A DNA stretch of 64,000 nt from Acidobacteriota bacterium (GCA_965248695.1 CBDFKD010000002.1:2432001-2496000); one strand, 5' to 3'. Numbered from the stretch's first letter, positions 20,044 through 47,155 are shown. The notes: generated by a model not told the origin, from the letters alone. Translations and numbers: made by a program.

Positions 20044-20085
20044 GCGCCCGTAGCTCAGCTGGATAGAGCAGCGGACTTCTAATCC
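20044..20085 (+). repeat. tRNA-Arg 5' half, copy 1 (left border)
   Basis: GCGCCCGTAGCTCAGCTGGATAGAGCAGCGGACTTCTAATCC matches 47082-47123. Confidence 0.97.
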
Positions 20086-20231
20086 AAACGCGCGCAGTTG
20101 GTTCGCGTTGGCGCTCGTTGTTTCTTCTTTGCTGCCGCTGGGTTGCGTTGGCAACGGATCAGCGCGCTCTTGGTTCTAGTTGGCCCCAGGTGGTGCTGGT
20201 CGGTTTCCCGCGGGCACAATCTCGGGCACAG
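20086..20231 (+). repeat. Type A left arm (also at 26477-26625, 30250-30399, 33502-33650, 36292-36440)
   Basis: 10-bp-phased TTGG runs followed by GGGCACA-N5-GGGCACA. Confidence 0.9.
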
Positions 20232-20320
20232 TTCAGAACGGTCAAACGGCATCGCCACTGGTGCTCGTCGGCATCACTACTCGTTCGCAGCAACTAGAAA
20301 CTGGTTCAGGAGGACTTGCA

Positions 20321-22291
20321 ATGGCTCCTTTCCGCCGTTCCGTCATCATCTGCCTCATGGCCAGCCTCGGTGCGGGGGCGCTACCGGCCGCAACAACACC
20401 GCCTGCACAACCACAGCAGTCGGAGTGGAGCTACTTCGGTGGCAGCAAAGCGTTCACCCGCTACTCGCCTCTAGATCAGATCGACCGCGACAACGTGGCC
20501 CAACTGGAGATCGTTTGGGGACGCCCGGCGGTCCGCAGCGACCTCATCGAGGCTTTCCCCGATCTGTTCGCGCGCGCCTACCTGCGGTCGACCCCGATCA
20601 TCATCGACGGCGTGCTCTACACGCAGGACGCCCACGGGCTGGTGATCGCTCTGGACGGCCGAACCGGCGAGACCGTCTGGCAACAGGATCTCGTGGCCCT
20701 CACCGAGGAAGAGGCCGAAGGTGCGCCCACGCGCGGCGTCGACTACTGGAGCGACGGCGAGGGCGACGAACGGATCGTGGCGGTGCGCGGCGAATACCTG
20801 TATGCGATCAACGCCACGACCGGCGAGCCGTATGACGATTTCGGCGACGGTGGCCGCGTCTACCTGCGGTACGAGGACGGCGCGGCGCCAGCGGGGAGTT
20901 TCAGCGACAGCAGCGGTCCGATCGTCGTACGCGACGTCGTGGTCATCAGCGGACTTTCCGGCGGTGCGGGGGACCGCGGCAACAAGATGGAGGCGGTCTC
21001 GGAGGACGCACGGGGCTACGACGTCCGCACGGGAGAGCTGCGGTGGACGTTTCACGCCGTGCCGCGCGAAGGCGAGGTCGGCGTCGACACCTGGGGCAAC
21101 GACTCGTGGAAGGTCGCCGGCGACATGGGTGCCTGGTCGCTGATGAGCGCCGACGAGGAGCTCGGCCACGTGTATGTGGCGTTCTCGGCTCCGACGACCG
21201 CCTGGTACGGGGGCTGGAGGCCGGGCGACAACCTCTTTTCCAACAGCCTCGTGGCGCTCAACGCGCAGACCGGTGAGCGCGTCTGGCACTTCCAGATGAT
21301 CCACCATGGCCTGTGGGACTACGAGCCCATCGGCCCGGCGACGCTGGGCGAGATCACGGTCGACGGGCGCCGGATCCCGGTGGTGATGCAGCCCACCAAG
21401 CACGGGTTCCTGTTCGTGTTCGACCGCCGGAACGGCGAGCCCTTGTGGCCCATCGAGGAGCGCCCGGTGCCGGCGTCGACGGTGCCCGGGGAGGCAGCCT
21501 CGCCGACACAGCCGTTCCCCAGCAAGCCGCCGCCGTTCGACTGGCAGGGCATCACCGAAGCCGACCTGATCGACTACACGCCGGCGCTCAACCGCCAGGC
21601 GCGCGAGCTCGCCAGCCAGTACGTCACCGGGCCCCTGTTCACGCCGCCCTCCGTCCCCAGCGACGAGCCCGGAGGCACGAAGGGCTCGCTGCTGTACCCC
21701 GGCTCCTGGGGCGCGGGCAACTGGAACACTGGCGCGTTCGACCCGGAGACCGGCGTCTACTACGCAGTCTCCAACAGCTCCTACGGCCCGACGAACCGCA
21801 ACGCAGTCAAGCAGACCGACCCGGCGGCGACCATGGAGTACGCCTACGAGCCGGCCGCCGCGCCCACGATCGACGGGCTGTTCATCATGAAGCCCCCCCA
21901 CGGCCGCATCACGGCCCTGGACCTGAACCGCGGCGAGCAGCTGTGGATGGCGGCCAACGGCGACGGGCAGCGGAAGCACCCGTTGCTGCGGCACCTGAAC
22001 CTGCCGCCGCTCGGCGTTCCGAACCGTCCAGCGCCGCTGCTGACCAAGACCCTGCTCTTCCTCGGAGAGGGCAGCAACGCCGTCATGGGTACCCTCGACG
22101 AGGAGTGGGCCTGGGGCACGGTCTTTCGCGCCTATGACAAGGCTACCGGCGACGTGGTGTGGGCCATGGAGTTGCCATCCGGAACCACAGCCGGCCCCAT
22201 GACCTACATGCTAGACGGTAGGCAGTACATCGTCGTGTCGGTCGGCGACCAGAACCACCCGCCGGAGTACGTCGCCCTGGCGCTCCCCTAG
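20321..22291 (+). CDS. PQQ-dependent quinoprotein (glucose dehydrogenase-like), exported
   Basis: YSPLDQIDRDNV, GDNLFSNSLVAL, WHFQMIHHGLWDY, GEPLWPIEERPVP, SPTQPFP. Confidence 0.9.
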   Translation: MAPFRRSVIICLMASLGAGALPAATTPPAQPQQSEWSYFGGSKAFTRYSPLDQIDRDNVAQLEIVWGRPAVRSDLIEAFPDLFARAYLRSTPIIIDGVLYTQDAHGLVIALDGRTGETVWQQDLVALTEEEAEGAPTRGVDYWSDGEGDERIVAVRGEYLYAINATTGEPYDDFGDGGRVYLRYEDGAAPAGSFSDSSGPIVVRDVVVISGLSGGAGDRGNKMEAVSEDARGYDVRTGELRWTFHAVPREGEVGVDTWGNDSWKVAGDMGAWSLMSADEELGHVYVAFSAPTTAWYGGWRPGDNLFSNSLVALNAQTGERVWHFQMIHHGLWDYEPIGPATLGEITVDGRRIPVVMQPTKHGFLFVFDRRNGEPLWPIEERPVPASTVPGEAASPTQPFPSKPPPFDWQGITEADLIDYTPALNRQARELASQYVTGPLFTPPSVPSDEPGGTKGSLLYPGSWGAGNWNTGAFDPETGVYYAVSNSSYGPTNRNAVKQTDPAATMEYAYEPAAAPTIDGLFIMKPPHGRITALDLNRGEQLWMAANGDGQRKHPLLRHLNLPPLGVPNRPAPLLTKTLLFLGEGSNAVMGTLDEEWAWGTVFRAYDKATGDVVWAMELPSGTTAGPMTYMLDGRQYIVVSVGDQNHPPEYVALALP

Positions 22292-22370
22292 GCGGGGGGG
22301 GGGGGGGGAACTGTCGAGTGGTAGACAATCTGGGTTGCAGCAAAGTCAATCCTGGTTCTTTGTACGGCAG

Positions 22371-23690
22371 ATGACGGTGCGGACGCAGCACGCGATCGAT
22401 GGGGCAGAGTTCCTCGACGAAGGCGAGCTCGCAGCGATCCGCACAGACCGTTGGCGCGCGCAGAGTGCCTATGTCGCGCGCGCGTCCCCGTTCTACGCAA
22501 GGCACTTCGCCGGGTTGAAACTGACCGGCGACCTCGCCGAGCTGGCGGACCTACCGTTCACTGACAAGGAGATGCTGCGCGCCGACCAGCGCGCCCAGCC
22601 GCCGTTCGGCAGCTACCTCGCCGCGCCGCCGCAGGACATTCGCCGCGTCCACCGCACCTCGGGCACCACCGGCGACGCCATGAACCTGGCGCTGTCGGCC
22701 GCGGACGCGAGGATGACCGCCGCGGTCGGCGCGCGCGCCCAGTCCGCTGCCGGACTCGGGCCGAGCCACCGGGTGGTGCACTGCCTCAACTATCAGCTGT
22801 GGATGGGTGGGTTCACCGACCACACGACGCTGGAGGCCACCGGCGCCACCGTGATCCCCTACGGCGTCGGCGATAGCGCGACGCTGATCCGGGTAATCCG
22901 CGACCTCGGCGTCACCGCGATCTCCTGCACGCCCTCCTATCCGGCGGTGCTGGAGCAGGTGCTGGCGGAGCACTATCCCGGCCTGGCGCCGCGTGACCTC
23001 GGCCTGCAGCTAGGCCTGTTCGGCGGCGAGCCCGGCCTCGACGACCCGGTGTTCCGTGCCCGGCTGGAAGAGACCTGGGGCTTCCTCGCCCGCAACGCCA
23101 ACTACGGCGTCACCGATATGCTGTGCAACTTCGCCGGCCAGACGGAGCTCTGCAACGACCTGCACTTCATGGCGCCCGACGTGCTGGAGGCGGAGCTGAT
23201 CGACCCCGACGCCGGCACCCGGCTGCCGTGGCGCGAAGGCGAGTCCGGCGAGCTGGTGCTGACCCACCTCGCCAAGGATTGCCAGCCGCTGGTGCGCTTC
23301 CGCACCGGCGACATCGTCACGTTGGCCGGCACCGGCCGGGCTGATTGCGGCCGCACGGTGCCCCGGTTCCGCGTCGTCGGCCGCAGCGACGACATGGTGG
23401 TGGTGCGCGGCCTCAGTACATTCCCGACCATGGTGGCATCCGTGCTCAACGGCTTCGACGCGATGAGCGGCGAGTACCGCATCGTGCTCGACCGGCCGCC
23501 ACCCTACGATGTGCTGCCGGTCGAGGTCGAGCTCGCCGAAGGGCAGGACGGCGGCGCTGATCTGGCGGCCAGCATCAAGGCGGCAATCAAGCGGGAGCTT
23601 GGCGCCACGGCGCGGGTGACGGTGCTGCCGCCGCGCAGCCTGCCGCGCACCGAGGGAAAGACCCGCCGCGTCTGGAGAACCTACACATGA
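22371..23690 (+). CDS. Phenylacetate-CoA ligase family protein
   Basis: HRTSGTTG, NYGVTD, PLVRFRTGDI, GRSDDM, EGKTRR. Confidence 0.9.
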   Translation: MTVRTQHAIDGAEFLDEGELAAIRTDRWRAQSAYVARASPFYARHFAGLKLTGDLAELADLPFTDKEMLRADQRAQPPFGSYLAAPPQDIRRVHRTSGTTGDAMNLALSAADARMTAAVGARAQSAAGLGPSHRVVHCLNYQLWMGGFTDHTTLEATGATVIPYGVGDSATLIRVIRDLGVTAISCTPSYPAVLEQVLAEHYPGLAPRDLGLQLGLFGGEPGLDDPVFRARLEETWGFLARNANYGVTDMLCNFAGQTELCNDLHFMAPDVLEAELIDPDAGTRLPWREGESGELVLTHLAKDCQPLVRFRTGDIVTLAGTGRADCGRTVPRFRVVGRSDDMVVVRGLSTFPTMVASVLNGFDAMSGEYRIVLDRPPPYDVLPVEVELAEGQDGGADLAASIKAAIKRELGATARVTVLPPRSLPRTEGKTRRVWRTYT

Positions 23691-24448
23691 CCGCATTCGA
23701 CTACGAGACGGTGCTGAGCGAGTACGAGGCCGACGGCGTCCGCACCATCACGCTCAACCGGCCGGAGAGCCTCAACGCTATGAATCGCCAGTTGGTCGAC
23801 GACGTGGCAAAGGCCTTCGCCGACGCCGACGCCGACCCCGATACGCGGGCGGTGATCTTCACTGGCGCCGGCCGCGGGTTCTGTGCCGGCGACGACCGGC
23901 GCGAGCACACGCACCCGGAGACCGAGGCCGCTGCACGCGACATCGTCGACGCGATCCAGCGCGCGACCGACGCCATCGTTTTCGGCGGTAAGCCGGTGGT
24001 GGGCGCGATCAACGGTTGGGCCGTCGGCGGCGGCTTCGAATGGGCGATCAACTGCGACTTTCCGATCTGGGCCGAAAGCGCCAAGGGCTTCTTCCCCGAG
24101 GTCTCGCTCAACCTGTTCGTCACCGGCGGCGTCACCTCGCTGCTGCCGGCACTGGTCGGCCTAAACCGCGCGAGAGAGATGCTGTTCCTCGGTGCGCGCT
24201 ACGACGCCGCAACGCTGCGCGAGTACGGCATCGCCTGGCGCGTGGTGCCCGATGCCGCGCTGATGGACGAGGCGCGCCCTGTGGCGCGCCAGCTCGCCGA
24301 GCTTCCGCCGCTGGCAATACGCGCCATGCGCCGCACGCTCTACCGCACCGCGATGACGGACCTCGCCTCCGCGATGCGGCTGGAAGGGGAGGCCACCGTC
24401 GCCGGCTTCCTCGACCCGGAGACCACCAAGCGGGTCAAGGACTTCTGA
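23687..24448 (+). CDS. Enoyl-CoA hydratase/isomerase family protein
   Basis: ITLNRPESLNA, FCAGDD, AINGWAVGGGFE; ATGA overlap with the ligase gene. Confidence 0.92.
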   Translation: MTAFDYETVLSEYEADGVRTITLNRPESLNAMNRQLVDDVAKAFADADADPDTRAVIFTGAGRGFCAGDDRREHTHPETEAAARDIVDAIQRATDAIVFGGKPVVGAINGWAVGGGFEWAINCDFPIWAESAKGFFPEVSLNLFVTGGVTSLLPALVGLNRAREMLFLGARYDAATLREYGIAWRVVPDAALMDEARPVARQLAELPPLAIRAMRRTLYRTAMTDLASAMRLEGEATVAGFLDPETTKRVKDF

Positions 24449-24661
24449 CCGAAGACGGACGTGCGGCGGCGGCCTGGTCTCGGCTTCGAGGAGTCCTGAT
24501 CGCCCTCGCTCCGCCAGGCAAAGGCGGTCCCGCAGCGAATCCCTTGAGGAGCCCAACGATCAGTGGTTGCATCCACGCGTCCCTCTACTGACCAAGCCAA
24601 GAAAGTGACTCGACAAGGGTCATGCCGGAATCCCGGGAGGTAGACAGTGGTTGGAGGATCG

Positions 24662-26460
24662 ATGACTGAATCCAGGCCGCGGCTGTTGATCGCTTTGCTG
24701 GCGAGCCTGAGCATATCGGCTTGTCAGCCGTCAACGCAGGACGCGTCGCCAGGCGATGCTGGCAGCCCAGCCGATTTGGTGCTGCAGGGCGGCAAGTTCT
24801 TTACCGTCGACGAAGCCCAGGTTTGGGCTGAAGCCGTCGCGGTCAAGGACGGCAGGTTCGTCTACGTCGGCAACGACGTTGGTGCAGAGAGCTTCGTCGG
24901 TCCCGATACCGATCGCCATGACCTCGGCGGCAAGCTGACGATTCCCGGCCTGGTGGATTCCCATACGCACCCAGGTCTGATGGGGCGGGAGACGGCCGGG
25001 TACACCGCAGTCCCCGTGGGTGGTGGTCCCAGAGGAAGGCTGCCCGGGGGTGGGACCAAGGAGGAGATCTTCGCTGCGGTGGAGGCCTATGCCGAAGCCA
25101 ACCCGGACCTTGCCTGGATCGAGATGGGTAGCTGGTCCGGGGATCTGTACGGCGTCGCGGGCCCACACAAGAGAGATCTGGATCGCGTCGTACCCGATCG
25201 ACCGGTGATGTTAGGAAGCGTCCATAGCCTTTGGGTCAATTCCGTGGCGCTCGAGATGATGGGGGTCGACAGCAACACACCCGATCCGGTACCCGGTCTC
25301 TCATACTTCGTACGGGATGCGGATGGGGAGCCTACCGGCTGGATCAAGGAATGGGCCGCCTGGCCCTATGTGCAGCACCTTACTGACGTTGACCGGGAGG
25401 CCAACAAGGAGGGTATCGACACCTTCTTGGAGTACCTGTCAGGCCACGGCGTTACTACACTCTTGGACGCTGGCAACAACAGCTACCACGATCTCACGTA
25501 CTCGCTGCTTGCCGAGCTAGAGGCAGCCGGTCGCCTGCCGGTTCGCTACGAGGGCAGCGATCACATCTTCTTGCCCGATCAGGTGCCCGGTGCGATCGAT
25601 GAGCTACAGCGGCTGCACCGCACTTACGGCAGCGAGCGTCTGACGTTCAACACGATCAAGATTCACTTCGACGGCACGGACGAGATTCGTACCGGCGCGG
25701 TGCTCGAGCCGTTCAGCGATGACCCGGGCAACCGAGGCGCTACGCTCCTCGACACCGAGGAGTTGAGTGATTTCATCGTGCAGCTTCACGAAGCCCGGAT
25801 CGATTTACACCTGCACATCGTGGCCGACCGGGGCGTTCGCATCGCGCTGGATGCCGTAGAAGCGGCGCGGGGATCGGTCGACGGCGAGCTCTATCCGCGC
25901 GTTACGATCTGCCACCTCGACATCATCGATACGGTCGACTACCCGCGTTTCAAACAGCTGGGTGTCATTGCCAACTACACACCCCAATGGCACGGCCTGG
26001 GAGACAGACCGCCGTTACCCTTGGCGATCGCTTCGAGAGGATGTTGCTGGTGCAGCCGTTACTGGATGACGGTGCGTTGGTCACCTTCTCCAGCGACGTA
26101 ACATCGCTCGGGGGCATGGAGCGGGCCAACCCATATCTGGGAATGCAGATCGGCCACAACCGCCAATACCACGAACAGGGCGAGGCCGCGCCGATAAGGC
26201 TGCCGCTGAGCGAACGGCTGAACCTGGAGGATCTGATCAAGGGATACACCTTGAACGGCGCCTACCAGCTCCGTATGGAGGACCAGCTCGGCTCGATCGA
26301 GGTGGGCAAGCTCGCCGATCTGGTGGTGTTGGATCGCAACCTGTTCGAAATCGATCGCTACGAGATCCACGAGGTTCGACCCGAGGCGGTCATCATGGAA
26401 GGCGAGATCATCAGGGGGAGCTTGGACGGCAGCGCGGGCGCCCGTAGCTCAGCTGGATAG
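24662..26460 (+). pseudogene. Amidohydrolase 3 family lipoprotein, frameshifted paralog of 33929-35722
   Basis: 10-bp deletion near 26010 relative to the paralog; 3' end runs into tRNA half copy 2. Confidence 0.85.
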
Positions 26461-26476
26461 AGCAGCGGACTTCTAA
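26438..26476 (+). repeat. tRNA-Arg 5' half, copy 2
   Basis: 39-nt exact match ending CTTCTAA. Confidence 0.97.
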
Positions 26477-26769
26477 ACCAAACGGTCGCAGTTGGTTCTG
26501 GTTGGCGCTGCTTGGTTCTTCTTTGCTGGCGTTGGTTTGCGTTGGTGCCCGATCACGCCGCTCTTGGCTAGCGTTGGTTCCCGTTGGTGCTGGCTGGTTT
26601 CCCGCGGGCACGATCGTGGGCAGAGTTTGGAACACCCCGATCACGGCTCCGACGATAGACTGTCTGAATACTGCCGCGGTAGGCTGTCACCTGCTGCGCG
26701 AGATGGGCGCTCCCTGGTCCCGCCGAGAGGCAGCGGCGGCGCACGGAGCGCTACGGGTCGGGACGGAGC

Positions 26770-27594
26770 ATGCGAACAGCGGAGGTCGAAGCCACCGGCT
26801 GGCGCGATCGCCTGCACGAGATCATCTTCGAGGCCGAGACACCGGCCGGTAAGAACTTCGACGTCGCGCTGTTGGTTCTGATCGTGCTCAGCGTGGTGAA
26901 CGTCTCTCTGGAGAGCGTCGCCGAGATCCGTGCCGAGCACGGGCTGCTGCTCCGACGCGTGGACTGGGCGATCACCATCCTGTTCACGATCGAGTACGTT
27001 CTCCGGCTGCTGTGCGTCCGCCGGCCCTTGCGCTACGCGCGGTCGTTCTACGGCGTGGTCGACCTGATGGCGGTGCTGCCTGTCTACCTGAGCCTGGTGA
27101 TCTCGGGGTCCCAGTCGCTGGTGGTGGTCCGGACCCTGCGCCTTCTGCGCGTCTTCCGTGTGCTCAAGCTGGCGCACTTCATCGGCGAGGAGCGCGCGCT
27201 GCGGGCGGCACTGCGAGCCAGCTCGCGCAAGATCGTAGTGTTCCTCGGTGCCGTGCTGACGGTGGTGCTGATCGTGGGTGCGGTGATGTACCTCATCGAG
27301 GGGCCGCAGAACGGTTTCAACAGCATCCCGGAATCGGTTTACTGGGCGATCGTCACGATGACGACCGTCGGCTACGGCGACCTTGCCCCCCAGACCGTGG
27401 CCGGCAAGCTCCTGGCGTCGGCGATCATGATCCTCGGGTACGGCATCATCGCCGTGCCCACCGGTATCGTCACGGTGGAGGTGGCCAGCACGCTACGAAC
27501 CTCGACGCGCACGATCGCCTGTCGCGAGTGCGCGATGGAGGGGCACGCCAGCGACGCGGTGTACTGCAAGTTTTGCGGTACGCGTCTCGAGTAG
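26770..27594 (+). CDS. Voltage-gated K+ channel / ion transporter
   Basis: TMTTVGYGD selectivity filter; RTLRLLRVFRVLKL S4 helix; C-terminal CxxC pair. Confidence 0.93.
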   Translation: MRTAEVEATGWRDRLHEIIFEAETPAGKNFDVALLVLIVLSVVNVSLESVAEIRAEHGLLLRRVDWAITILFTIEYVLRLLCVRRPLRYARSFYGVVDLMAVLPVYLSLVISGSQSLVVVRTLRLLRVFRVLKLAHFIGEERALRAALRASSRKIVVFLGAVLTVVLIVGAVMYLIEGPQNGFNSIPESVYWAIVTMTTVGYGDLAPQTVAGKLLASAIMILGYGIIAVPTGIVTVEVASTLRTSTRTIACRECAMEGHASDAVYCKFCGTRLE

Positions 27595-27666
27595 CTGCGA
27601 CAGGATCGACGCGCGTCGCGCTGCACGAAGCCACCGATGTTCACGCTTCAGAGCTCGTGAAGAACC

Positions 27667-29889: not shown

Positions 29890-29915
29890 CGGATTCCTCC
29901 AGTTCGAGAGCCTGA

Positions 29916-29944
29916 AGCCTATCGCCAGAGCGTTCGAGGGTCCA
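29916..29944 (-). promoter_or_regulatory. Conserved inward sigma70-like promoter (TGGACC-N17-TAGGCT)
   Basis: Same boxes and 17-bp spacing at 33171-33199, 35961-35989 and 54918-54946. Confidence 0.65.
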
Positions 29945-30127
29945 CGGGGCGCAAGACCACCCGCTATCCGTCAGTCCACACATCGAAGATGCTCCCTACG
30001 AGAGAGCGGCGAGCTTAGCCGAGGGATGTGTGCTTCCGGCCATCCGGGGCGCGGGGAACCGATCCTGCGCCTGTGAACTGACGAATAGTGGCTATCGCAA
30101 TCCGCATTTCTGGAGATGCGCCGACTC

Positions 30128-30210
30128 TTGCTAAACTGCGGGCACAGTTTGGGCACAATCGGCCTCACAAGAAAACACCGTGCAGCTCCTAAGTGCCCAT
30201 GAATAAAGGG
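30128..30210 (+). repeat. Type A right arm (also at 33381-33462, 36172-36252, 41227-41308)
   Basis: TTGCTAAACTGCGGGCACAGTTTGGGCACAATC...TAAGTGCCCATGAA(T/C)AAAGG immediately before the tRNA half. Confidence 0.9.
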
Positions 30211-30249
30211 GCGCCCGTAGCTCAGCTGGATAGAGCAGCGGACTTCTAA
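30211..30249 (+). repeat. tRNA-Arg 5' half, copy 3
   Basis: 39-nt exact match. Confidence 0.97.
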
Positions 30250-30440
30250 ACCAACCGCGCGCAGTTGGTTCCAGTTGGCGCTGCTTGGCGCTCGTTGGCT
30301 GGCGTTGGTTTGGGTTGGTGCCGAATCAGCTCGGCTTTGGTTCTAATTGGTTCCAGTTGGTGCTGCTTGGTTCCCCGCGGGCACAATCGTGGGCACAATC
30401 CCCCGCACCCTCAGCGCACGTCGGGCACCAGCGGTGCCGA

Positions 30441-33137: not shown

Positions 33138-33170
33138 TCGCGCGCCACGGTGGAGTAGGTTGGCGAGGTG

Positions 33171-36291: not shown

Positions 36292-36631
36292 ACCAAACGG
36301 TCGCAGTTGGTGCTGGTTGGCGCTGCTTGGTGCTCGTTGGCTGGCGTTGGTTCCTGTTGATAGCGAATCAGCCCGCTCTTGGTTCTAGTTGGCTCCAGTT
36401 GGTGCTCGTTGGTTCCCCGCGGGCACAATCGTGGGCACAGCGGCGGAGCACAGTGTCGTCTCTGGCAGGTCTAGGCGACATCTTGATCACGCGCGAATTC
36501 GGCGCACCTCCGCCGAGAACGCGCACGCCCAGCCCATCGCCAGGCCAATCGGGCGAAGCTCAGGACAATGAGACCTCCGCCGAAGCAGCGTGCGCCGGGC
36601 GCCTGATTCGCGTACGTAGTCGCACCACCGC

Positions 36632-38656: not shown

Positions 38657-38662
38657 GGTTGC

Positions 38663-40930
38663 CTAGTCCTCCGCCACGGCGACGACGTGGTGTCGCGTTC
38701 GAAAGATCAACATGTCGTCCACGGCCGCCGGGGTAGCCATGATGATCTCGCCCATCGCGTTGACGGCCAAGCGCTCGAACTCCCTGCCGGCCTGAATCAC
38801 GACTACGTCGCCGTCCTCGCTCGAGAAGTACAGGCGGCCGTCGGCCGCTATCGGCGACGCCGAGTAGTGGCTGCCGCGGCTGAGGCGGGCCTGGTAGAGA
38901 CGGCTCCCGGTGGCGGCATCGTAGGCGGCGAGGATGCCGGTGTCCGAGCTCACATACAGGACGTCCCCGTAGAGAATCGGGGTCGGAATGAACGCACCAC
39001 CACGGTGGGTGCTCCACGCCACGTAGTCGTTCGAGACCGCGTCATCCGTCGGGGTGATGTCGCCGCCCCCACCGGGGCGGACGGCGTAGATCGGCTGCAC
39101 GCTACCGCCGCTGCCGCTCGTCAAGTAGATCAATCCGTGGCCGCTGATCGGTGCCGGAATGGCGTAGATCGAGTGCTTGGCCAGCCTCCATAGCTCCTCT
39201 CCGGTCTGCGGGTCGTAGCCGCGCGCGAAGTTCGGGGCCAGGGTGACGAGCTCGGTGCGTGGTGGACCCTCGTAGATCAACGGTGTCGCCCACGAAGGCG
39301 CCTCGTCGCGGGCGGTGCGCCAGACTTCGGCGCCGGTCTCGATATCGAACGCGGCGATGAACGAGTCGGCGAGCAGGTCCACCTGCAGAATCACGAGCCG
39401 ATCGTGAATGATTGGCGAGGCAGCCGTGCCCCACTCATAACTCGGATCTACGACATACCCCGACCCGAGCGTACCGAGGTCGCGCGACCACAGCAGGGTC
39501 CCCGCGGTGTCGTAGCAGTAGAGCCCCTCCGAGCCGAACCAAACCACGACGTGCGTCCCGTCGGTCACCGGCGTGGCATTGGCCTGAGACTGGCTCACGT
39601 GGCGCGCCGTCCGCGGGATCCCTTCGCGGGCCTCGCGTTCCCAGAGGACCTCGCCGCTCTCCCGATCGAGCGCATAGACACGCCAAGAGTGTGGCTCCCG
39701 ATCTGTCGTCGACCGGTTGTCGGCGTCGAGGAAGGAGTAGGCGTCAAAGCCATGACGAAAGGCCGTCGGGTCGTCGGTCAGGGCTACCGCTGTCGTCACG
39801 AAGATACGGCTGTCCCAGACGATCGGACTCGAATGACCTAGCCCCGGGATCGAAGTCTTCCAAGCGACGTTGATCGAGCCTTCGAGGTCCCAGGTCGTTG
39901 GCGGTACGGCGTCGAGAGCAACCCCAGAGCCCCGGACACCCCGGAACGATGGCCAGCGCGCCCCGGTTGCGGCCACCGGGGCGGCGACCGGGCGATCAAA
40001 CGCCGGCTGTAGTGTTCGTGCCGGCTTCGCTCTCGGCACCGGATCGGCGGTCCGCACGAACACCTCCGTGATGCCCTCTTCCCGGAGGCTTATCTTGCGC
40101 GGCGTCGGCAACCCGACCGGTCTGCTGACGAGCTTGGTGCGGTCGAACGATTTGAAGCTCAGCAGGTCGAGCGGCAGTAAGCCGACGCTCGGCTGTCCGG
40201 CCCGCTCGAGCAGCAGCTGGTCCGAATGGACGCTCGGCGCCAGGGTCAGCGAGCTCCCGGCGGCGTTTCGATAGATCCCCACCCAGAGGTCGCGCCGTTC
40301 CGCCGACGACAGACGATCGATCGGTCGAGGCTCGATCGCGCCCGCGGCCCGCAACGTTTCGGCGAGATCCGCCAGATCGTAGCTAACCGCGGCCTCGTAG
40401 GCGACGTTGAGTAACGACGGGTCGACCCCGCCCCTGGCGACGATCCTCTTCACCACGTCGAACCGGCCACTCCATATCAGATCCAGAAGTGACTCGCCGG
40501 CCGCGCCGGCACCCGCCTCGAGAAGCAGCTCGAGCATCGTTACCCGGGTCTCTTCTGCGGCTCCGGTACCTCCCATCCCGGCATGTCGCAACGGTGTCCG
40601 GCCCCACTCGAGATCCTTGGTGTCCGGATCGGCTCCGTTCTCGAGCAGCAACCGGACGATCTCGAGATGGCCTCGTTCGGCAGCAATATAGAGCGCCGTG
40701 GCGCCGCGGTCATTCGCAACCTCGACGTCCACACCATGGGCGAGCAGTGCGCCCACCGTGGCGGCATCGCCGTGGCCGGCCGCTTCTAGCAGGCGGTGAT
40801 CGCGGGACGGTGCCTGCAGCGTGGGGCCTGTGACGAGCACCGCGCAAAGTCCGGCACACAGAAACCACGCGTCAGATGCTGGCCCTTGCGCGTTCGCCAT
40901 CGGCCGCCGGACTGGGGAGAAGGTGCTCAT
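38663..40930 (-). CDS. Ankyrin-repeat + PQQ-like beta-propeller protein
   Basis: GATALYIAAERGHLEIVRLLLENGAD; WPSFRG, GLGHSSPIVW, SASPIAADGRLY; start codon uncertain. Confidence 0.85.
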   Translation of the reverse strand: MSTFSPVRRPMANAQGPASDAWFLCAGLCAVLVTGPTLQAPSRDHRLLEAAGHGDAATVGALLAHGVDVEVANDRGATALYIAAERGHLEIVRLLLENGADPDTKDLEWGRTPLRHAGMGGTGAAEETRVTMLELLLEAGAGAAGESLLDLIWSGRFDVVKRIVARGGVDPSLLNVAYEAAVSYDLADLAETLRAAGAIEPRPIDRLSSAERRDLWVGIYRNAAGSSLTLAPSVHSDQLLLERAGQPSVGLLPLDLLSFKSFDRTKLVSRPVGLPTPRKISLREEGITEVFVRTADPVPRAKPARTLQPAFDRPVAAPVAATGARWPSFRGVRGSGVALDAVPPTTWDLEGSINVAWKTSIPGLGHSSPIVWDSRIFVTTAVALTDDPTAFRHGFDAYSFLDADNRSTTDREPHSWRVYALDRESGEVLWEREAREGIPRTARHVSQSQANATPVTDGTHVVVWFGSEGLYCYDTAGTLLWSRDLGTLGSGYVVDPSYEWGTAASPIIHDRLVILQVDLLADSFIAAFDIETGAEVWRTARDEAPSWATPLIYEGPPRTELVTLAPNFARGYDPQTGEELWRLAKHSIYAIPAPISGHGLIYLTSGSGGSVQPIYAVRPGGGGDITPTDDAVSNDYVAWSTHRGGAFIPTPILYGDVLYVSSDTGILAAYDAATGSRLYQARLSRGSHYSASPIAADGRLYFSSEDGDVVVIQAGREFERLAVNAMGEIIMATPAAVDDMLIFRTRHHVVAVAED

Positions 40931-41308
40931 GGCCTCAATAGTTCGTCTGATTAAGGACCTCGTCTGGCAGGGGCCCTCATGGCGCGGTGCCAACGTATGG
41001 GCCCGCGGCGATAGCCTAGCGCCGCTGCGGACAGGGTCCAAGAGCCACAACGGTGTGCGGCATGGACGCCTGTCTCGAGCCGCTGGGCTGGCGGTCATCC
41101 GAGGCAAGCCCGACGCCGCGTTCCAGGAGCGGCAGATCAGCAACTACGACTATCGCCGTGATCTCCTTGATCCACGTCAGTCGTTACGAACGGCAGCTCC
41201 GCTGGCCGTCGGACCGAGGCGACTTGTTGCTAAACTGCGGGCACAGCTCGGGCACAATCGGCCTCACAAAATCCACCGTGCGGCCCGTAAGTGCCCATGA
41301 ACAAAGGG

Positions 41309-41347
41309 GCGCCCGTAGCTCAGCTGGATAGAGCAGCGGACTTCTAA
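41309..41347 (+). repeat. tRNA-Arg 5' half, copy 6 (type A/type B hybrid junction)
   Basis: 39-nt exact match; type A arm on the left, type B arm on the right. Confidence 0.97.
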
Positions 41348-41485
41348 GTCACTTCACTCGACTGGGCGGGGCTTGTTTCTACTTGTATCTAGTTGCATCC
41401 AATCGACTTGTGCCCGAACCGAAGTGACTGCGAGTTGTATGTTCTTGTATCTAGTTGGACGTAAATTGGCAGGAATTTGGCAAGG
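41348..41485 (+). repeat. Type B left arm (also at 44576-44712)
   Basis: 10-bp-phased TTG(T) runs, then TTGGCAGGAATTTGGCA. Confidence 0.9.
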
Positions 41486-41531
41486 TCTGAGCTGAGTACG
41501 TAGCGTGGCTCGCGAGACTCCGCTGACGCCG

Positions 41532-41570
41532 CTACGGGTCCGTCGGCACGAGCCGCTGCTCGTCGAACCA
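41532..41570 (-). pseudogene. Kinase-TolB C-terminal remnant (WFDEQRLVPTDP*)
   Basis: 3-bp deletion relative to the copy at 44759. Confidence 0.75.
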
Positions 41571-41607
41571 GGTGGTGGCGAGGTTGTGGTCCAGGGCACC
41601 CGCCCGC

Positions 41608-44265
41608 CTAGCCCACGTCCTTGCCGAGCACGACGAGCTTCTTGAGCAGCACCGCGCCTTTGACGTTCCACACCTGTATCTCTGGCGGAGCATCGAACTT
41701 ACGCCCCATCAGGGCAAGGTCTTTGCGTCCCTTGCGTGCGAAGACGATTCCGGCGGCGCCGATCTGCGCGTAGCTGCCGTCGAAGACCTGAACGCGTGAA
41801 CCGGAGGCCTTGCCGTCGCGGCCGAACATCTGGAACCCGACATTGCCGTCGCCCAGGTGGCGCGTGACGACCACGATCTCATCGCCGTTGTCGGCGTTGC
41901 CGTCGAACTCTTGGGGGAACGCGCCGAGCACCTCGTACTCCTTGCCGGCGACCGTGCCGCCTCCCACCCGCTTGGCCTTCTTGCGGCTCGGATCCCACAC
42001 CTCGAAGGCCGCATCGCCGTTAGGCCGCGTGAACCCGACTACCACCAGGCGGCGTACCGCCCCCTTCGGCCCCGGCCGCGACCGAATCGTTCCCCAGCCG
42101 AGCACCGGATCGGCGGCAATGGCACCGCTCTTGGAAAGCTGATTCCCGTTCGCCGCCAGCACCTTGAAGAACGCCCTTGATCTTGTCTTGCGGTACCCGA
42201 CCAGGAGCTCACCGCCGGGCCGGGCAGAATCGAAGTCGCCGACCGTCCACAAGGCCTCGTCGAAGCCCGCGCTGAGGACCTTCTTGTTGAGCAGCGTCTT
42301 GCCGCTGCGCGGATCGACGATGAGCAACGTCGACCCCCTGCCGTTGCCACCGCTGTATGCGGCAACCACCTCGTCGGATCCGTCGTTATCGGTGTCTAAC
42401 CGGAGCCATTGGTGAAACGCCGACTTGGCCCCAATCACGGCGTGATCGGCCAGCTTCTGCAGCTTCTTGCCGCTCGCCGACGTGCCCCAGACGGTGAGAT
42501 GTCCGGTGCCCTTCTTGGCGGTGGTGGCGATCCCGATCTCGTCGCCTCGCGTGCCGTCGTATCTGAGCGCGAACAGCTGGCTGCGCAAGGTGCCTGCCGC
42601 CCCCACCGTCTTGCGATCGCGCAGCGCACCCTTGTCGCTGCGCAACTGCAGCTCTCTCACACCGGTGTCGAGGCCGCCGAGGAACAGCACCTCGGCCTTG
42701 CCTTTGCCGTCGGTGTCTACAGTGGTTGTGTACATGGCAGTGAACTTCTTCCCGGCGAAGAAGTTCCACACTCGCTTGCCTTTGTCGTTGTAGGCCTGGC
42801 TCCAGGCACCCCGAGCCGAGCCGCGGAACTCGATACTGTTGGCGCCAAGAGTCTGGAGGTCGTCGCCGACGAGGTTCCGTGTTCTTCCGGGCAGGTGCGC
42901 CGACGCTCCCGAGACTCCGGGACGAGCGCCGTTGGCAAGCCCCCGCGACGCGAACGCCACCCGCGAACAAGGGAATGCCGGGCGTGGGGGTGGGAGTAGA
43001 CCGATGCCGAGGACGCTGCCGCTGCCCGCCGCGCCTGAGTCGACAATGCCGCGGGAGAACGGGTCTACTTCGAACGTGCGGGCGGCCCTCGACAGGAAGA
43101 AATGGACGAACTGTATCGATCTCCGCACCCGTGCCGACGCGCACCCATCGTGATACTGAAAGACCGAGCGGGATTGACCGTTGATCGAGATTCCACCCTG
43201 CAAATTGTCCCCGAGATTATGATCGAGAGCGAAGCCCACGATGCCACCCTGTTGGTTCAGCGTGTTCTCGATGATTTTGATCCTCGGGTCGCTCGCCACC
43301 ACGATCCAGGGGTCGGGGGCGGCGCCGGTGACGGTGACGGTCAATTCGCGTTCGCAACCCTCAGTATCACAGAATGTCGGCGTCGACGGGGAGATCGTGA
43401 AGCTCACGTCACCTCCACCACCGCCGCCGCCACCGCCGCCGTCGTCGTCTTCGATGGTGCCGACTCCCTGCCCGTCGCCGATCGTCGGTTTCGCCGATCG
43501 AGCGATGTTGGACAAGTTCACGAAGAAGGTCTCGTCGCCCTCGTCGTCCGAGTCACCGTTCACTGAGACGTTGAACGTCTTGGTCTCGCCGGCGTTGCCG
43601 TTGAAGCTCAGCGTGCTGGTCTTGGCGGTGTAGTCGCTGCCGGCCGTGGCGCTGCCGTCGGCTGTCGCGGCCTGGACGGTGAAAGCGTCCGAGGCGGCCG
43701 ACAGCGTCACCGTGAAGCTGAAGTTCTTGCTGCCGCTGTCGCCCTCAACCGCCGTGACGTCGTTGATCGACACCGTCGCGTTGCCACCGCCCCCACCGGT
43801 GTCGCCGTCGGGGGTGATGGTGACCGTCGCCGTGTCGTCGCCGATCGTCACATCTGCAGCGCCGGCTCCCCCCACGCCGGTGATCTTCACGGTGAAGGTC
43901 TCGTTGCCCTCCACCTCCGTGTCGTCATGGATCTCGATGTTGAAGATTTTGGTTTGCGGCAGTCCCGTACCGGTCAGCGTCGTCGTTCGCCCAGTGTAGT
44001 CAGCGCCGTCCGTGGCAGTGTCGCCTGGCCCCGTGAATGCGGTAATGGTGAATTCGAAGTTGGGGGCGTTGCCGGTGAACGTCACGGGTACCAGGACCTG
44101 TGTGTCGCCCTCAACGACCGAGGTGTCGCCGACCGACAGCGTGCCGGGTAACTTGCCGCTCGCGGTCGGGCCAGCGGCGGCGATCTGCGGGGCGGAGATC
44201 AGCAGGATCGCCGCCAGCGCCAGCGCCGGGGATTTCAAACTCAATCCGAGATACTTGCGCATCAT
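41608..44265 (-). CDS. Secreted Calx-beta domain protein with C-terminal FG-GAP-like region
   Basis: Signal peptide from MMRKY; two Calx-beta domains (VEGD...ATAGSDY...DETF...GTIEDDD); DTDxDG motifs. Confidence 0.82.
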   Translation of the reverse strand: MMRKYLGLSLKSPALALAAILLISAPQIAAAGPTASGKLPGTLSVGDTSVVEGDTQVLVPVTFTGNAPNFEFTITAFTGPGDTATDGADYTGRTTTLTGTGLPQTKIFNIEIHDDTEVEGNETFTVKITGVGGAGAADVTIGDDTATVTITPDGDTGGGGGNATVSINDVTAVEGDSGSKNFSFTVTLSAASDAFTVQAATADGSATAGSDYTAKTSTLSFNGNAGETKTFNVSVNGDSDDEGDETFFVNLSNIARSAKPTIGDGQGVGTIEDDDGGGGGGGGGGDVSFTISPSTPTFCDTEGCERELTVTVTGAAPDPWIVVASDPRIKIIENTLNQQGGIVGFALDHNLGDNLQGGISINGQSRSVFQYHDGCASARVRRSIQFVHFFLSRAARTFEVDPFSRGIVDSGAAGSGSVLGIGLLPPPRPAFPCSRVAFASRGLANGARPGVSGASAHLPGRTRNLVGDDLQTLGANSIEFRGSARGAWSQAYNDKGKRVWNFFAGKKFTAMYTTTVDTDGKGKAEVLFLGGLDTGVRELQLRSDKGALRDRKTVGAAGTLRSQLFALRYDGTRGDEIGIATTAKKGTGHLTVWGTSASGKKLQKLADHAVIGAKSAFHQWLRLDTDNDGSDEVVAAYSGGNGRGSTLLIVDPRSGKTLLNKKVLSAGFDEALWTVGDFDSARPGGELLVGYRKTRSRAFFKVLAANGNQLSKSGAIAADPVLGWGTIRSRPGPKGAVRRLVVVGFTRPNGDAAFEVWDPSRKKAKRVGGGTVAGKEYEVLGAFPQEFDGNADNGDEIVVVTRHLGDGNVGFQMFGRDGKASGSRVQVFDGSYAQIGAAGIVFARKGRKDLALMGRKFDAPPEIQVWNVKGAVLLKKLVVLGKDVG

Positions 44266-44340
44266 CCCCATCCTTTGAGGTCCCTGGCTACGGGACCCGT
44301 AGCCGATGCGGTCGCTTTCTAACGCGACGCCAGGCGAACC

Positions 44341-44536
44341 AGGACCCGTGACCATCCCACAAAACTGAACCCAGCGCGCGACCGCGCCCCCACCGTTGCG
44401 TTTCGCGTTCTTGGCACTCAGGCTGCCGGATATGATGAGCGTGCGGTTTGGCAGGGAATAGGCAAAGTCGCGTTAGGGCTCGATGGCGATCGGGTCGGCC
44501 TTGCCGTAAGTCATTGGTTCTATTGAACTTCTATGT
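44341..44536 (+). repeat. Type B right end (identical by eye to ~46886-47081)
   Basis: Contains TTTGGCAGGGAATAGGCA and TAAGTCATTGGTT before the tRNA sequence. Confidence 0.9.
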
Positions 44537-44575
44537 GCGCCCGTAGCTCAGCTGGATAGAGCAGCGGACTTCTAA
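44537..44575 (+). repeat. tRNA-Arg 5' half, copy 7
   Basis: 39-nt exact match. Confidence 0.97.
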
Positions 44576-44758
44576 GTCATTTCACTCGACTGTGCGCGTC
44601 TTGTTTCTACTTGTATCTAGTTGCATCCAGTCGACTTGTGCCCGAAGACGACTGACTCCCAGTTGTATGTACTTGTATCTAGTTGGACGTGAATTGGCAG
44701 GAATTTGGCAGGGCGGGCAGATCGAGGGTTGAGCTAGTTTTCGGGGTGCAGCCGGGCG

Positions 44759-44815
44759 CTACGGGTCCGTCGGTACGAGCCGCTTCAGCTCGTCGAACCA
44801 GTTGGTGACCAAGTT
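44759..44815 (-). pseudogene. Kinase-TolB C-terminal remnant (NLVTNWFDELKRLVPTDP*)
   Basis: Manual translation. Confidence 0.82.
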
Positions 44816-44837
44816 GTCGTCCAGGTCACCCGCCCGC

Positions 44838-46907
44838 CTACTCCACGTCCTTGCTCAGCACCGCGATCTTCTTCAGCAACACGCCACCGTTGACGTTCCA
44901 GACCTGCACTTCTGGTTGGCTACCTACCTGGCGCGCCATCAGCGACAGGTCGACACGTCCCTTGCGCGCGAAGACGATCGGGCTGGCACTGGGGTTGATG
45001 TAGGTTCCGTCGAACACCTGCACCCGATCCCCGCGCTGCCTGCCGTCACGTCCGAACATCTGGAAGCCGATGTTGCCGTCGCCCACGTGGCGACTCACGA
45101 CGACGATCTCCCATCCGTTGTCGCCATCGCCGTCGAAGTCGAAGGCCGCGTCGCCGTTGGCACGGGTGAAGGCGACGACCACCAGGTCGCGGACGGTGCC
45201 CTTGGGGCCCGGCTTGGACTGGATCGCTCCCCATCCGTGCAGCGACTTGGCAGCGATGCTCTTGCTCGTCGAGAGTACTGCGCCGCTGGTCGCGAGCACC
45301 TTGAAGAACCCCTTGCTCTTCTTGCGGTACCCGACCAGGAGCTCGGCACCTGATCTGTCCGGATCGAAGTCGCCGGGCATCCACACGGCCTGGTCGAAAC
45401 CGGTCTTCAGGACGGTCTTGTTCACCAGCGTCTCGCCAGTCCGCGGATCGACAACGCGCAACGTCGCGCCTTTGCCGCTGGGAGCGCTGTAGCCTACGAC
45501 CATCTCGTGGCGGCCGTCGTCGTCGATGTCGAGCGGCATCCACTGATGGTTGGCCGACTTCGCCCCGACAACGGTGTGCTCGGCAAGCTTTCGCAGCTTC
45601 TTGCCTGACCGATCCCAGATCGCCAACTGGCCGGTGCCGTTCTTGGCCACATAAGCAATGCCGATCTCCTGACCCCGCTTGCCGTCGTGCTCTAGATTCA
45701 TCAGCCGTGCCGCTGTGGATCGGGCTGGAGTTACCGACTTCCGGTCCTGAAGTGCGCCGCTGGAGCTGCGCAGCTGGAGCTCTGTTGTGCCGGACCCCTG
45801 GTTACCGAGAACCACGGGCTCCGGCTTGCCGTTGCCTTCGGTGTCGATGCGCAGCAGTTGGAGGCCGGGAAACTTAGGGCCGGTGAACAGGTTCAGCGAC
45901 CGCTTGCCTCGACTGTTGTACTGCTGCACCCATGGGCCTCGCGCCGCGCCGCGATACTCCGGTGCGAGCACGTGGATCTCGTCGAGACCTTTGGCTCGGC
46001 GCGAGTCCGCGCGTCCGTCCGCGAAACCCCCGGCCGCCGGACTCGGCGGCTGGTTCTGCGATGAGTTGTTGCGGTTACTGGAATCGTTGTAATCGTCCTT
46101 GATGGACAGCCCGTAGAGAAACTGGTCATCGAGAGGGATTCCATCGATGTCACTGGCGATCGGAAAAAGAGTCCATGACGGGATACCACCGATCGAAGGT
46201 GTTGGAGCACTGCAAACGCAGGCTATTGCCACCTCTTCGGATATGGCCGAGGTCTGGGACACCGTATGCGTTTGGCTGCCGATGCGGACAGACGCAGACC
46301 GATTGAAACCGGTTTTGTTTGAGAAAACGCCGTAGAACAGACTGCCGTCGTCCTTTTCCTTCGCCGACTCAATCTGGATCCAGCTGTCGCTTGTTGAAGC
46401 GTTCCAGGTACCGGAGCCTCGGACCTTGATCTCAGAGCCTGAATACCCGTGCGCGGCAAAGCTGCGCGCCTGGTCGGAGATTTCGAGGCTGTCACCGCCG
46501 CCACCGTCGTCGTTTTGGATGGTGCCGACTCCCACCGGGAGGTTGTTGTTCGCCGGTATGTTCCCCGAGCCCTGGACGTTCGACAGCTGCACTTTGAAGG
46601 TCTCGTCGGGCTCGTCTTTGGTGTCGCCGAGCACGAGAACGGAGACGTTCTTCGTCTCGCCGGCATTGCCCGTGAAGTTGAGCGTTTGCTTGTTGATGGG
46701 CCCGTAGTCTTCGCCGCTGGTAGCGGTGCCGTTGGCGGTGGCAGCATCAACGCTGAACGAAGCGCTGGCAGTCGATAGCGTCACGGTGAAGTCGAAGGCC
46801 GTACCGTCGCCATCTCCGCCCTCTAGCTTGCTGACGTTGTTGATCGACAGCGTCGGGGTGTCGCCGCGGTCGCTTTCTAACGCGAAGGACCCGTGACCAT
46901 CCCACAA
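44838..46907 (-). pseudogene. Calx-beta paralog, 5'-truncated (no signal peptide or first Calx domain) with an internal in-frame deletion
   Basis: Upstream sequence (ALESDR) fused directly to a Calx domain; ~31 aa missing at AAF/DFDG relative to the paralog. Confidence 0.7.
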
Positions 46908-47081
46908 AACTGAACCCAGCGCGCGACCGCGCCCCCACCGTTGCGTTTCGCGTTCTTGGCACTCAGGCTGCCGGATATGATGAGCGTGCGGTTTGGCAGG
47001 GAATAGGCAAAGTCGCGTTAGGGCTCGATGGCGATCGGGTCGGCCTTGCCGTAAGTCATTGGTTCTATTGAACTTCTATGT

Positions 47082-47155
47082 GCGCCCGTAGCTCAGCTGG
47101 ATAGAGCAGCGGACTTCTAATCCGCAGGTCGGAGGTTCGAATCCTCCCGGGCGCG
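47082..47155 (+). tRNA. tRNA-Arg(TCT), CCA not encoded
   Basis: Full cloverleaf: GCGCCCG/CGGGCGC, GCTC/GAGC, GCGGA-CTTCTAA-TCCGC, GGAGG-TTCGAAT-CCTCC. Confidence 0.98.

Follow-up and report, generated by a model that had tools for sequence, protein, structure and literature searches.

How does a row of small gene units come to be strung between pieces of a single tRNA gene when no integrase is encoded among them? The question arises from a 64,000-nucleotide stretch of an Acidobacteriota bacterium genome (GCA_965248695.1, CBDFKD010000002.1:2432001-2496000; the window, by which we mean this whole stretch), where seven displaced 5' halves of tRNA-Arg(TCT), named c1 to c7 from left to right, precede the intact gene and separate seven units, unit n following cn (Table 1). 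We consider it likely that these units form a tandem array of non-autonomous integrative elements, akin to cis-mobilizable elements (CIMEs), that was made by recombination in the anticodon loop and depends on a helper integrase. The repeats themselves are supported as att-site scars of tyrosine-integrase recombination in that loop.

tRNA halves, arms and their fixed geometry

The lone tRNA that ARAGORN finds in the window is tRNA-Arg(TCT), the sole TCT isoacceptor gene among the 59 tRNA genes of the genome. Its first 39 nt are matched eight times without a mismatch, all on the plus strand, by the seven displaced copies and the intact gene; 100 shuffles gave zero matches, and the whole genome (2 contigs, 5,889,537 bases) holds no copies beyond these eight. 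A first-pass annotation, made by a model from the sequence alone, had described seven copies that stop at the anticodon loop CTTCTAA, the first of them running 3 nt longer, and exact matching and junction alignment bore out both statements: all seven terminate at that loop, and identity at c1 extends 3 nt downstream (TCC) and 2 nt upstream, for a total of 44 identical nt. An Rfam scan of positions 10000-52000 at E <= 0.1 returned nothing but the tRNA and a sub-threshold antisense match on the same tRNA.

The anatomy of the sequence around the halves was taken from an alignment of the eight junctions, self-BLAST and motif mapping. Every copy is followed by a left arm of ~150-190 nt, of type A after c1 to c5 and of type B after c6 and c7. 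Right arms of type A precede c3 to c6 and those of type B precede c7 and the tRNA gene, and no right arm is recognizable upstream of c1 or c2. Units 2 to 5 are A/A and units 6 and 7 are B/B, so that six units have complete arm pairs, while unit 1, with a left arm only, is atypical and not a clean cassette. The earlier picture of seven units each with a left and a right arm stood for all seven left arms and failed for the right arm of unit 1.

Within the arms, repeated motifs lie at fixed distances from the core. Type A left arms carry GGGCACA-N5-GGGCACA at +168 from the core start in 5/5 cases and type A right arms GGGCACA-N4-GGGCACA at -69 to -71 in 4/4; in type B, double TGGCA sites take these places, TGGCAGGAATTTGGCA at +158 on the left (2/2) and TGGCAGGGAATAGGCA at -88 on the right (2/2). 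An inverted motif is found in the proximal right arm, GTGCCC in type A, ~20 nt before the core, and TTGCC in type B. The left arms also hold a phased tract, with TTG(G) at offsets 15, 25, 35, 45, 55, 65 and 87, 97, 107, 117 in type A and TTG at 25, 35, 45, 60 and 87, 97, 107, 118, 129 in type B. The best period of this phasing is 10.3-10.4 nt, and the number of shuffles, out of 2000, that equalled its score was 0 for c2 to c5, 10 for c1, 19 for c6 and 11 for c7; with a 10-nt period, the TTG repeats are therefore not coding repeats. Types A and B are ~52% identical, which is the level expected by chance, yet this layout is common to both. Around cores that are 39/39 identical in all eight copies, identity between arms of one type is 78-95% for left arms and 83-91% for right arms, and the right arms before c7 and before the tRNA share an identical last 90 nt. 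In one junction examined for palindromes, only short imperfect inverted pairs (<=13 nt) were present.

Lambda-type attP sites consist of a core and arm-type Int sites, with phased Xis sites between the core and the arm sites. The array resembles them in having a core between arms with direct arm-type repeats and phased repeats on one arm, and by analogy the TTG tract is probably a platform for a putative excision or bending factor. It differs in that its core is a tRNA 5' half, in that the right-arm sites lie, in autonomous relatives, inside the 3' coding end of the integrase gene, and in that its arm-binding proteins are putative.

Integrases of relatives and the spread of the arms

The genome has 13 matches to tyrosine recombinases (PF00589) and 2 to serine recombinases (PF00239), none of them in the window, and none of the 13 PF00589 genes lies near GGGCACA pairs or a tRNA-Arg gene. 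The statement that no recombinase open reading frame (ORF) occurs in the window holds for both of these classes and has to be qualified for a pair of identical DDE transposase genes of the IS3 family, which lie outside the array at 10775-11803 (-) and 14221-15249 (+). Pfam found no integrase among the 12 cargo proteins, in agreement with the proposed non-autonomy of the units, none of which contains one.

In relatives, by contrast with the window units, an integrase gene is part of the picture. Queried with a junction, each of the four other genomes of the genus, and genomes of other genera as well, gave loci with multiple hits, and a PF00589 scan of five relatives placed an integrase gene at their arrays. 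The arrays of G002 and G004 consist of two exact halves and the intact gene, with one decayed half in addition in G002. The last unit of the G002 array encodes a 363-aa protein (PF00589, E = 3e-14) whose gene ends 30 nt before the intact tRNA-Arg, and in G004 a truncated integrase copy ends 15 nt before the leftmost half. Used as a query, the G002 integrase matched 8 of the 26 genomes of the order at E <= 1e-20. G003 and the window genome are without it (0 matches at that threshold in the latter, where the best tblastn hit, at E = 0.015, was a Xer-like gene). Among 12 loci from the order search, 5 have a tRNA-Arg 5' half directly after the integrase gene, and 6 of the remaining 7 have another co-oriented tRNA there (SeC twice, Lys-CTT three times, Lys-TTT once), at distances of 15-30 nt for tRNA-Arg and 8-32 nt for the other tRNAs. 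Anticodon-loop tyrosine integrases, which the first-pass annotation had named as background, are thus represented in relatives by a family of the expected kind, directly beside tRNA-Arg(TCT).

The last ~30 codons of the integrase genes at these loci always hold a double direct repeat, such as GGGACA-N5-GGGACA or GGGAAGG. In a 32-kb autonomous element of G005, the left arm is made of three 10-nt phased repeats followed by GGGAAGGTGATAGGGAAGGTG, which is the motif of the 3' end of that element's own integrase gene. A viral contig, L077, carries attP in one piece: an integrase end with GGGACA twice, a tRNA-Leu 5' half that ends in the anticodon loop, and a second GGGACA pair about 190 nt further. 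Because the motif pair recurs in the left arms of both the G005 element and L077, the double repeats can be taken as arm-type sites that co-vary with the integrase. A window junction (right arm, core, left arm) has the plan of an attP, and the proposal that such junctions are equivalent to attP agrees with the layout seen intact in L077 and in the G005 element. The integrases of the relatives' elements belong to a family that sits 5' of tRNA genes; the window units have the sites of this family, not its gene.

The type A motif itself is found with an integrase outside the phylum. A scan of species-representative genomes for GGGCACA-N4-GGGCACA followed after 40-65 nt by the start of tRNA-Arg returned two relatives from the genus, a locus in a metagenome-assembled genome of a Legionella sp. 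and a locus in Desulfogranum marinum. The latter two encode an integrase of 359 aa that belongs to this family, shares 49% identity with the G002 protein and carries GGGCACA-N4-GGGCACA in its last codons (..DGHNLGTL..), and in the Legionella locus the pair starts 71 nt before tRNA-Arg, as in the type A arm. One frame of the type A arm (..GHSLGTI..) resembles the end of the L037 integrase (..GHNLGTL..). We set aside a coding likeness, and since variant arms differ by non-synonymous changes, the resemblance was treated as conservation of a site at the DNA level. When the window was searched for integrase relics by tblastn with the G002 integrase as query, very permissive settings produced nothing but noise, so the right arms are not recognizable as pseudogenes at the protein level. 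The nearest phage relative of the L037 integrase, that of phage D3, is 26% identical and too distant for knowledge to be transferred. Two scans of viral contigs, for the type A right-arm junction and for the core with left arm A, found 0 matches.

Arms without an integrase are widespread. The GGGCACA-pair/tRNA-Arg pattern was found in 28 metagenome contigs, which with four genome loci make 32 loci examined; an integrase is present in 5, all with a G+C content of 0.43-0.48, and absent from 27, with a G+C content of 0.59-0.71. All 21 high-GC loci with at least 1.1 kb of sequence upstream of the junction lack an integrase gene, and with that much upstream sequence the absence is real for those 21. 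Beyond the window genome, the same arms without an integrase turn up in all four remaining genomes of the genus, in a second family of the order and in metagenome contigs. The cargo and its order are different there, and several of the metagenome contigs (L041, L050, L052, L058) have two halves each. The whole genome of the window has 8 GGGCACA pairs, all within the array. Of the places where the arms were to be looked for, as had been suggested as a check, relatives hold them as well, and at home this motif is confined to the array.

Several measures bear on how well the arms are conserved. Although 19 type A right arms match one another at a median of 54% in pairwise comparison, they have in common the blocks TTCTTGCTAAACTGC (or a variant) and CGTAAnTGCCCATAAACAAAGGG, both absent from the search pattern, and the same arm boundary is found in 15/19 copies from different genomes. 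Left arms of both types have the TTG offsets unchanged in a lineage with another D-arm in its tRNA half (L041, L050, L063, L065) and in G020, which belongs to a different family within the order. Copies of the left arm are not grouped by genome; the left arm after c3 is 88-91% identical to copies in G003 and L041 and 79-81% identical to those after c1 and c2. Units 6 and 7 encode cargo proteins that are 55% identical between arms that are 86-100% identical. Taken as a sequence pattern, this conservation of the arms points to function.

Mobile units, fossil array or maintained depot

If these elements move as we propose, the family's tyrosine integrase would recombine in the anticodon loop of the single tRNA-Arg(TCT) gene, with a crossover that, by analogy, would fall within the 7-nt loop. 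The element side would bring a whole tRNA 5' half together with the sequence immediately upstream, and each insertion would rebuild the tRNA from the incoming half and push the previous half leftwards, in which case the 5' 39 nt of the present tRNA would have come from unit 7. What the units would need in cis is what they keep: right-arm repeats (about 70 nt from the core in type A and 88 nt in type B), the inverted near-core copy, about nine phased TTG and the left-arm pair. Movement, now or recently, would be provided in trans by a helper integrase, probably with a helper excision factor, and because no helper is encoded in this strain, the array is presumably immobile there at present. Because the gene occupied by the array is the only one for an essential tRNA, each insertion must restore it, which accounts for the flawless conservation of the halves; halves that are 39/39 identical fit a model in which the half of an element must function in the tRNA for as long as that element is the last inserted. 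In a wider version of this mechanism, an arms-only scaffold, composed of att arms, a tRNA 5' half and perhaps a tRNA promoter, would pick up host paralogues, travel between Acidobacteriota genomes on borrowed 5'-of-tRNA integrases and excision factors, and accumulate at the one tRNA-Arg(TCT) gene, forming a reservoir from which gene families could expand. That types A and B are self-standing families of such cassettes, and so a second cassette system independent of integrons, is a tentative idea that we hold to be rather doubtful.

Three known systems help to place the array. [quoted passage not shown] On that description the array is like them in keeping attL and attR (both in units 2 to 7, the left arm only in unit 1), in lacking integration and transfer genes, and in standing in tandem at one tRNA-gene target (PMC5704250). 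It differs from them in having seven units in a row and no autonomous partner in the genome, in the small size of the units (2.5-6.4 kb, with 1-4 host-type genes and no transfer-gene remnants), and in using the 5' half of a tRNA instead of the 3' end. With regard to decay from an ICE or IME, the type A right arm corresponds to an integrase 3' end in motif and spacing (-70, compared to -71 in L037), and tblastn found no remnant of the gene. The same integrase-less arms occur across genera with different cargo, so the array may be part of a propagating non-autonomous family and not the product of independent decay.

Islands in tRNA genes as defined by Islander likewise have an intact tDNA with co-oriented fragments, identity that ends in the anticodon loop, and an integrase of the tyrosine family. 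In the figures given by that resource, the anticodon class accounts for 2083 of 3919 islands (PMC4383910, Table 1), a 5' fragment is found in 159 of 3919, and 2168 genomes yielded 4 tandems of three or more (PMC4383910). In the window, the displaced fragments lie on the correct side of the intact gene and all seven end their identity at this known crossover sublocation, and an integrase gene within each island is missing. The Islander method, as set out there, demands an integrase gene per island (PMC4383910), so an array of this kind would be filtered out. The term integron-like, which had been applied to the array, holds as an analogy only. Stacked small, promoter-poor gene units at one site with a repeated recombination site at their bounds are common to both; the array has no intI, attI, Pc or single-strand-folding attC, the imperfect palindromes being replaced at its bounds by a tRNA half and direct-repeat-rich arms of the lambda type, with double-stranded att sites and arm-type repeats, and its cassettes lie in both orientations and not in a common one.

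Comparison of cassettes among relatives, which had been proposed on the grounds that identical content would speak against mobility, showed that content and order differ. Unit 4 (half, left arm A and amidohydrolase) is 92.5% identical in G003, where it is preceded by a B-type right arm instead of the A-type arm of the window. A gene of unit 2 is found in G001 in an A/A cassette without the ion-channel gene, and in G002 and G004 outside any arm pair. The amidohydrolase of unit 4 is a 90% copy of the unit 1 gene, and the relic ends of a unit-3-like gene around it indicate that cargo replacement within an existing cassette has happened.

A number of observations weigh against helper-driven movement. 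Family integrases matched 31 of the 401 genomes in a sample of the phylum at E <= 1e-40, a tally that includes one unpublished genome, and among 28 loci inspected GGGCACA-type repeats occurred only beside tRNA-Ser(GCT) (L104, L107). The integrases that Acidobacteriota have at tRNA-Arg carry GGGACA or GGGAAG, not the motifs of arms A or B. An integrase flanked by GGGCACA or TTGGCA arms, which the first-pass annotation had led us to look for, did not materialize: neither the 26 genomes searched in the order nor the 401 in the phylum gave one that pairs an A or B motif with tRNA-Arg(TCT). Scans for promoters and terminators in both right-arm types gave no hits, including none of the sigma-70 type, so that an element-borne tRNA promoter, supplied by the right arm, is something we infer. 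The junction between the amidohydrolase and c2 is common to G001, and HigBA, c1 and its left arm are common to G003 (contig C19), which makes parts of the array old and vertically inherited. Units 3 and 4, and likewise 6 and 7, look like diverged duplicates, and part of the array could have grown by duplication in place and cargo replacement. A right arm is missing from unit 1, whose four genes are not enclosed by an arm pair in G003; one unit of G002 combines a B left arm with an A right arm. Finally, no circles, empty sites or unit-number polymorphism were seen in sequencing runs that consist of short contigs broken at the repeats.

The main rival, unlikely as an account of the whole array and one that may hold for part of it, starts from one or more old autonomous islands that lost their integrase, after which the array was reshaped in place by unequal crossing-over between halves or arms, gene conversion and cargo replacement, with mini-units that were never moved by a helper. 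Such a fossil would fit a genome without a cognate integrase, the junctions common by descent to G001 and G003, diverged duplicates such as units 6/7 and 3/4 with unit-3-like relic ends in unit 4, the 90-nt identity of the right arms before c7 and the tRNA, as from gene conversion, and cargo from host paralogue families with chromosomal copies 60-86% identical. It sits poorly with two unrelated arm types (about 52% identical) that have one geometry and recur together in G020 and metagenome contigs, with arm copies that interleave among genomes, with functional arm blocks conserved across lineages over a 54% background, with arms better conserved than the coding cargo between them, and with displaced halves that are all 39/39 here and include a decayed one in G002.

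Two other accounts were considered. The arms could be serviced by an unlinked resident recombinase, or could insulate or punctuate genes, in a depot that the host maintains; integrase-less arms do adjoin intact tRNA-Arg genes in several lineages, their blocks are conserved and the cargo consists of host-type paralogues. We find this improbable, however, because no tyrosine recombinase gene among the 13 lies close to GGGCACA pairs or to a tRNA-Arg gene, cassette genes in both directions imply no common promoter logic, the arms have the architecture of the attP of autonomous elements, and Rfam shows a tRNA only. The array could also have been produced in assembly, by strain variants of an island collapsed or concatenated at the 39-nt repeat, a concern voiced in the first-pass annotation. 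Four runs of one sample contain the region (0.71-0.96 of words) only as short contigs ending at repeats, where the adjacency of units cannot be re-checked; nine further runs contain small shares of it only. Nevertheless we give an artefact very little credence, since every junction is unique in sequence (arms 78-95% identical, cargo unrelated), the genome is in 2 contigs, and arrays of the same kind occur in independent assemblies, namely, G002 and G004 (in long contigs), G020 and metagenome contigs with two halves. Joints in the runs are dominated by cross-mapping between paralogues, and the one clean joint, from 35708 to 47082, is simply the amidohydrolase/c2 junction of unit 1 mapped onto its paralogue.

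If arms-only units are indeed moved by helpers, they would give large genomes from soil and sediment, those of Acidobacteriota among them, a simple and widespread means of shuffling and multiplying paralogues, which here are pyrroloquinoline quinone (PQQ) beta-propeller proteins, kinases, amidohydrolases and Calx-beta proteins. Island-mapping tools that require an integrase per island do not see arrays of this kind, and the literature, seen mostly as abstracts, contained no description of such integrase-less arrays in Acidobacteriota. The arms can also be used as a testable map of an uncharacterised integrase family, with an anticodon-loop core, integrase-specific arm-type sites and a phased repeat tract.

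Cargo of the units and neighbouring sequence

The seven units contain 4, 2, 1, 1, 2, 1 and 1 cargo genes, on both strands, with domains assigned by Pfam to the 12 proteins; they span 2.5-6.4 kb, hold no remnants of transfer genes, and have chromosomal paralogues of their cargo elsewhere, 60-86% identical. The last gene of unit 1 (20083-26437) runs directly into c2. Compared to the 602-aa paralogue in unit 4, this amidohydrolase is split over two overlapping frames, the second of which ends at a TAG within the tRNA half; the orthologue in G003 has its own normal end with no tRNA half after it.

Table 1. Coordinates of the tRNA-Arg(TCT) array, its units and cargo, and other listed loci (window positions unless a contig is named; site offsets in brackets)
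Feature	Position	Strand	Remarks
HigB-like toxin/HTH antitoxin pair	19438..20029	+	left border of array; HigA gene ends 14 nt before c1
c1, displaced 39-nt tRNA half	20044..20082	+	identity to tRNA runs to 20085; no right arm upstream
Unit 1 left arm A	20083..20235	+	phased TTG(G), then GGGCACAATCTCGGGCACA at 20212-20230 (+168 from core start)
Unit 1 cargo region	20321..26437	+	no right arm; last frame stops inside c2
Unit 1 PQQ dehydrogenase	20180-22291	+	longest ORF; likely ATG 20321
Unit 1 AMP-ligase	22335-23690	+
Unit 1 enoyl-CoA hydratase	23687-24448	+
Unit 1 amidohydrolase	24647-26101	+	continues in other frame, 25987-26460
c2, 39-nt tRNA half	26438..26476	+	adjoins truncated amidohydrolase 3' end; same junction in G001 (contig C148)
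Unit 2	26477..30210	both	left arm A sites 26606-26624; right arm A GGGCACAGTTTGGGCACA at 30140-30157 (-71)
Unit 2 ion channel	26770-27594	+
Unit 2 cytochrome c-PQQ_2 protein	27667-29889	-
c3, 39-nt tRNA half	30211..30249	+
Unit 3	30250..33462		left arm A sites 30379-30397; right arm A sites 33393-33410 (-70)
Unit 3 Ser/Thr kinase-PD40 protein	30441-33236	-
c4, 39-nt tRNA half	33463..33501	+
Unit 4	33502..36252		left arm A sites 33631-33649; right arm A sites 36184-36201 (-69)
Unit 4 relic 3' end of PD40-type gene	33693-33735	-
Unit 4 amidohydrolase	33914-35722	+
Unit 4 relic upstream region	35859-36252		unit-3-like; resembles 33069-33462
c5, 39-nt tRNA half	36253..36291	+
Unit 5	36292..41308		left arm A sites 36421-36439; right arm A sites 41239-41256 (-70)
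Unit 5 PQQ dehydrogenase	36632-38656	-
Unit 5 ankyrin-PQQ_2 protein	38663-41143	-
c6, 39-nt tRNA half	41309..41347	+	joins right arm A to left arm B
Unit 6	41348..44536		left arm B TGGCAGGAATTTGGCAA at 41467-41483 (+158); right arm B TGGCAGGGAATAGGCAA at 44449-44465 (-88)
Unit 6 Calx-beta protein	41608-44355	-
c7, 39-nt tRNA half	44537..44575	+
Unit 7	44576..47081		left arm B sites 44695-44711 (+158); right arm B sites 46994-47010 (-88)
Unit 7 Calx-beta protein	44838-46907	-
Intact tRNA-Arg(TCT)	47082..47157	+
ATGGCAAAAGCT tandem arrays	G000:C1:20985-21050, G000:C2:5235666-5235730, G000:C2:2778546-2778612
Paralogous tyrosine recombinase genes near ATGGCAAAAGCT	C1:23769-24953, C2:5238716-5239831, C2:2774620-2775717

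Two further sequences were considered as parts of the units and rejected. A candidate distal right arm in units 2 to 4 also occurs at 11992-12115 and, in G004, outside an arm. A ~40-nt sequence just inside several left arms is the 3' end of a protein family with at least 20 loci genome-wide; at 33693-33735, 41530-41567, 44758-44807 and 13701-13753 it reads FDELKRLVPTDP* on the minus strand and, from its translation, looks like a C-terminus common to a large family of proteins. The copies in units 6 and 7 are located immediately past the stop codon of the Calx-beta ORF, in a different frame.

Among relatives, the sole integrase-bearing unit of the G002 array contains an IS630-like transposase gene (L013, 1806-2897), and its left arm, with a TGCAAG pair, mismatches the GGGACA sites of its integrase, so this unit may be composite. 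In G007 (L019, G007:C2:2765001-2785000), two full-length tRNA-Arg(TCT) genes at about 11863-11937 and 18457-18532 stand in direct orientation 6.6 kb apart, a duplication unlike the 5'-half arrays. G+C-rich metagenome contigs (L057 at 6063-12220, L042, L044, L045, L055, L059, L062 and L066) share a ~6-kb integrase-less unit with QueC-like, methyltransferase, DoxX and periplasmic binding protein genes and GGGCACA pairs at its bounds; its end sequence matches only the first ~17 nt of the tRNA, and an ORF with a weak PF00589 match lies just to the left. An apparent empty cassette in L050 (2660-2823) was rejected as a deletion chimera within an array, in which a left arm A, represented by its distal half, is joined after ~25 nt to a right arm A at the end of a unit that begins with a left arm B.

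Elsewhere in the genome, ATGGCAAAAGCT is repeated five times in tandem at a distance of about 3-4 kb from three tyrosine recombinase genes that are paralogues of one another, with one such repeat array for each gene (Table 1); this is apparently another mobile element in three copies. Upstream of the array, the IS3-family transposase genes (rve, HTH_21) are each contained in one copy of a perfect 1260-bp inverted repeat (10741-12000 and 14024-15283), and the two copies flank a gene for a 436-aa NHL-repeat beta-propeller protein (12223-13533) in a layout like that of a composite transposon. Downstream of the array, 53487-53725 and 59757-59995 are 90% identical over 239 nt, and 61227-61587 and 61572-61933 form a tandem-like pair with 75% identity.

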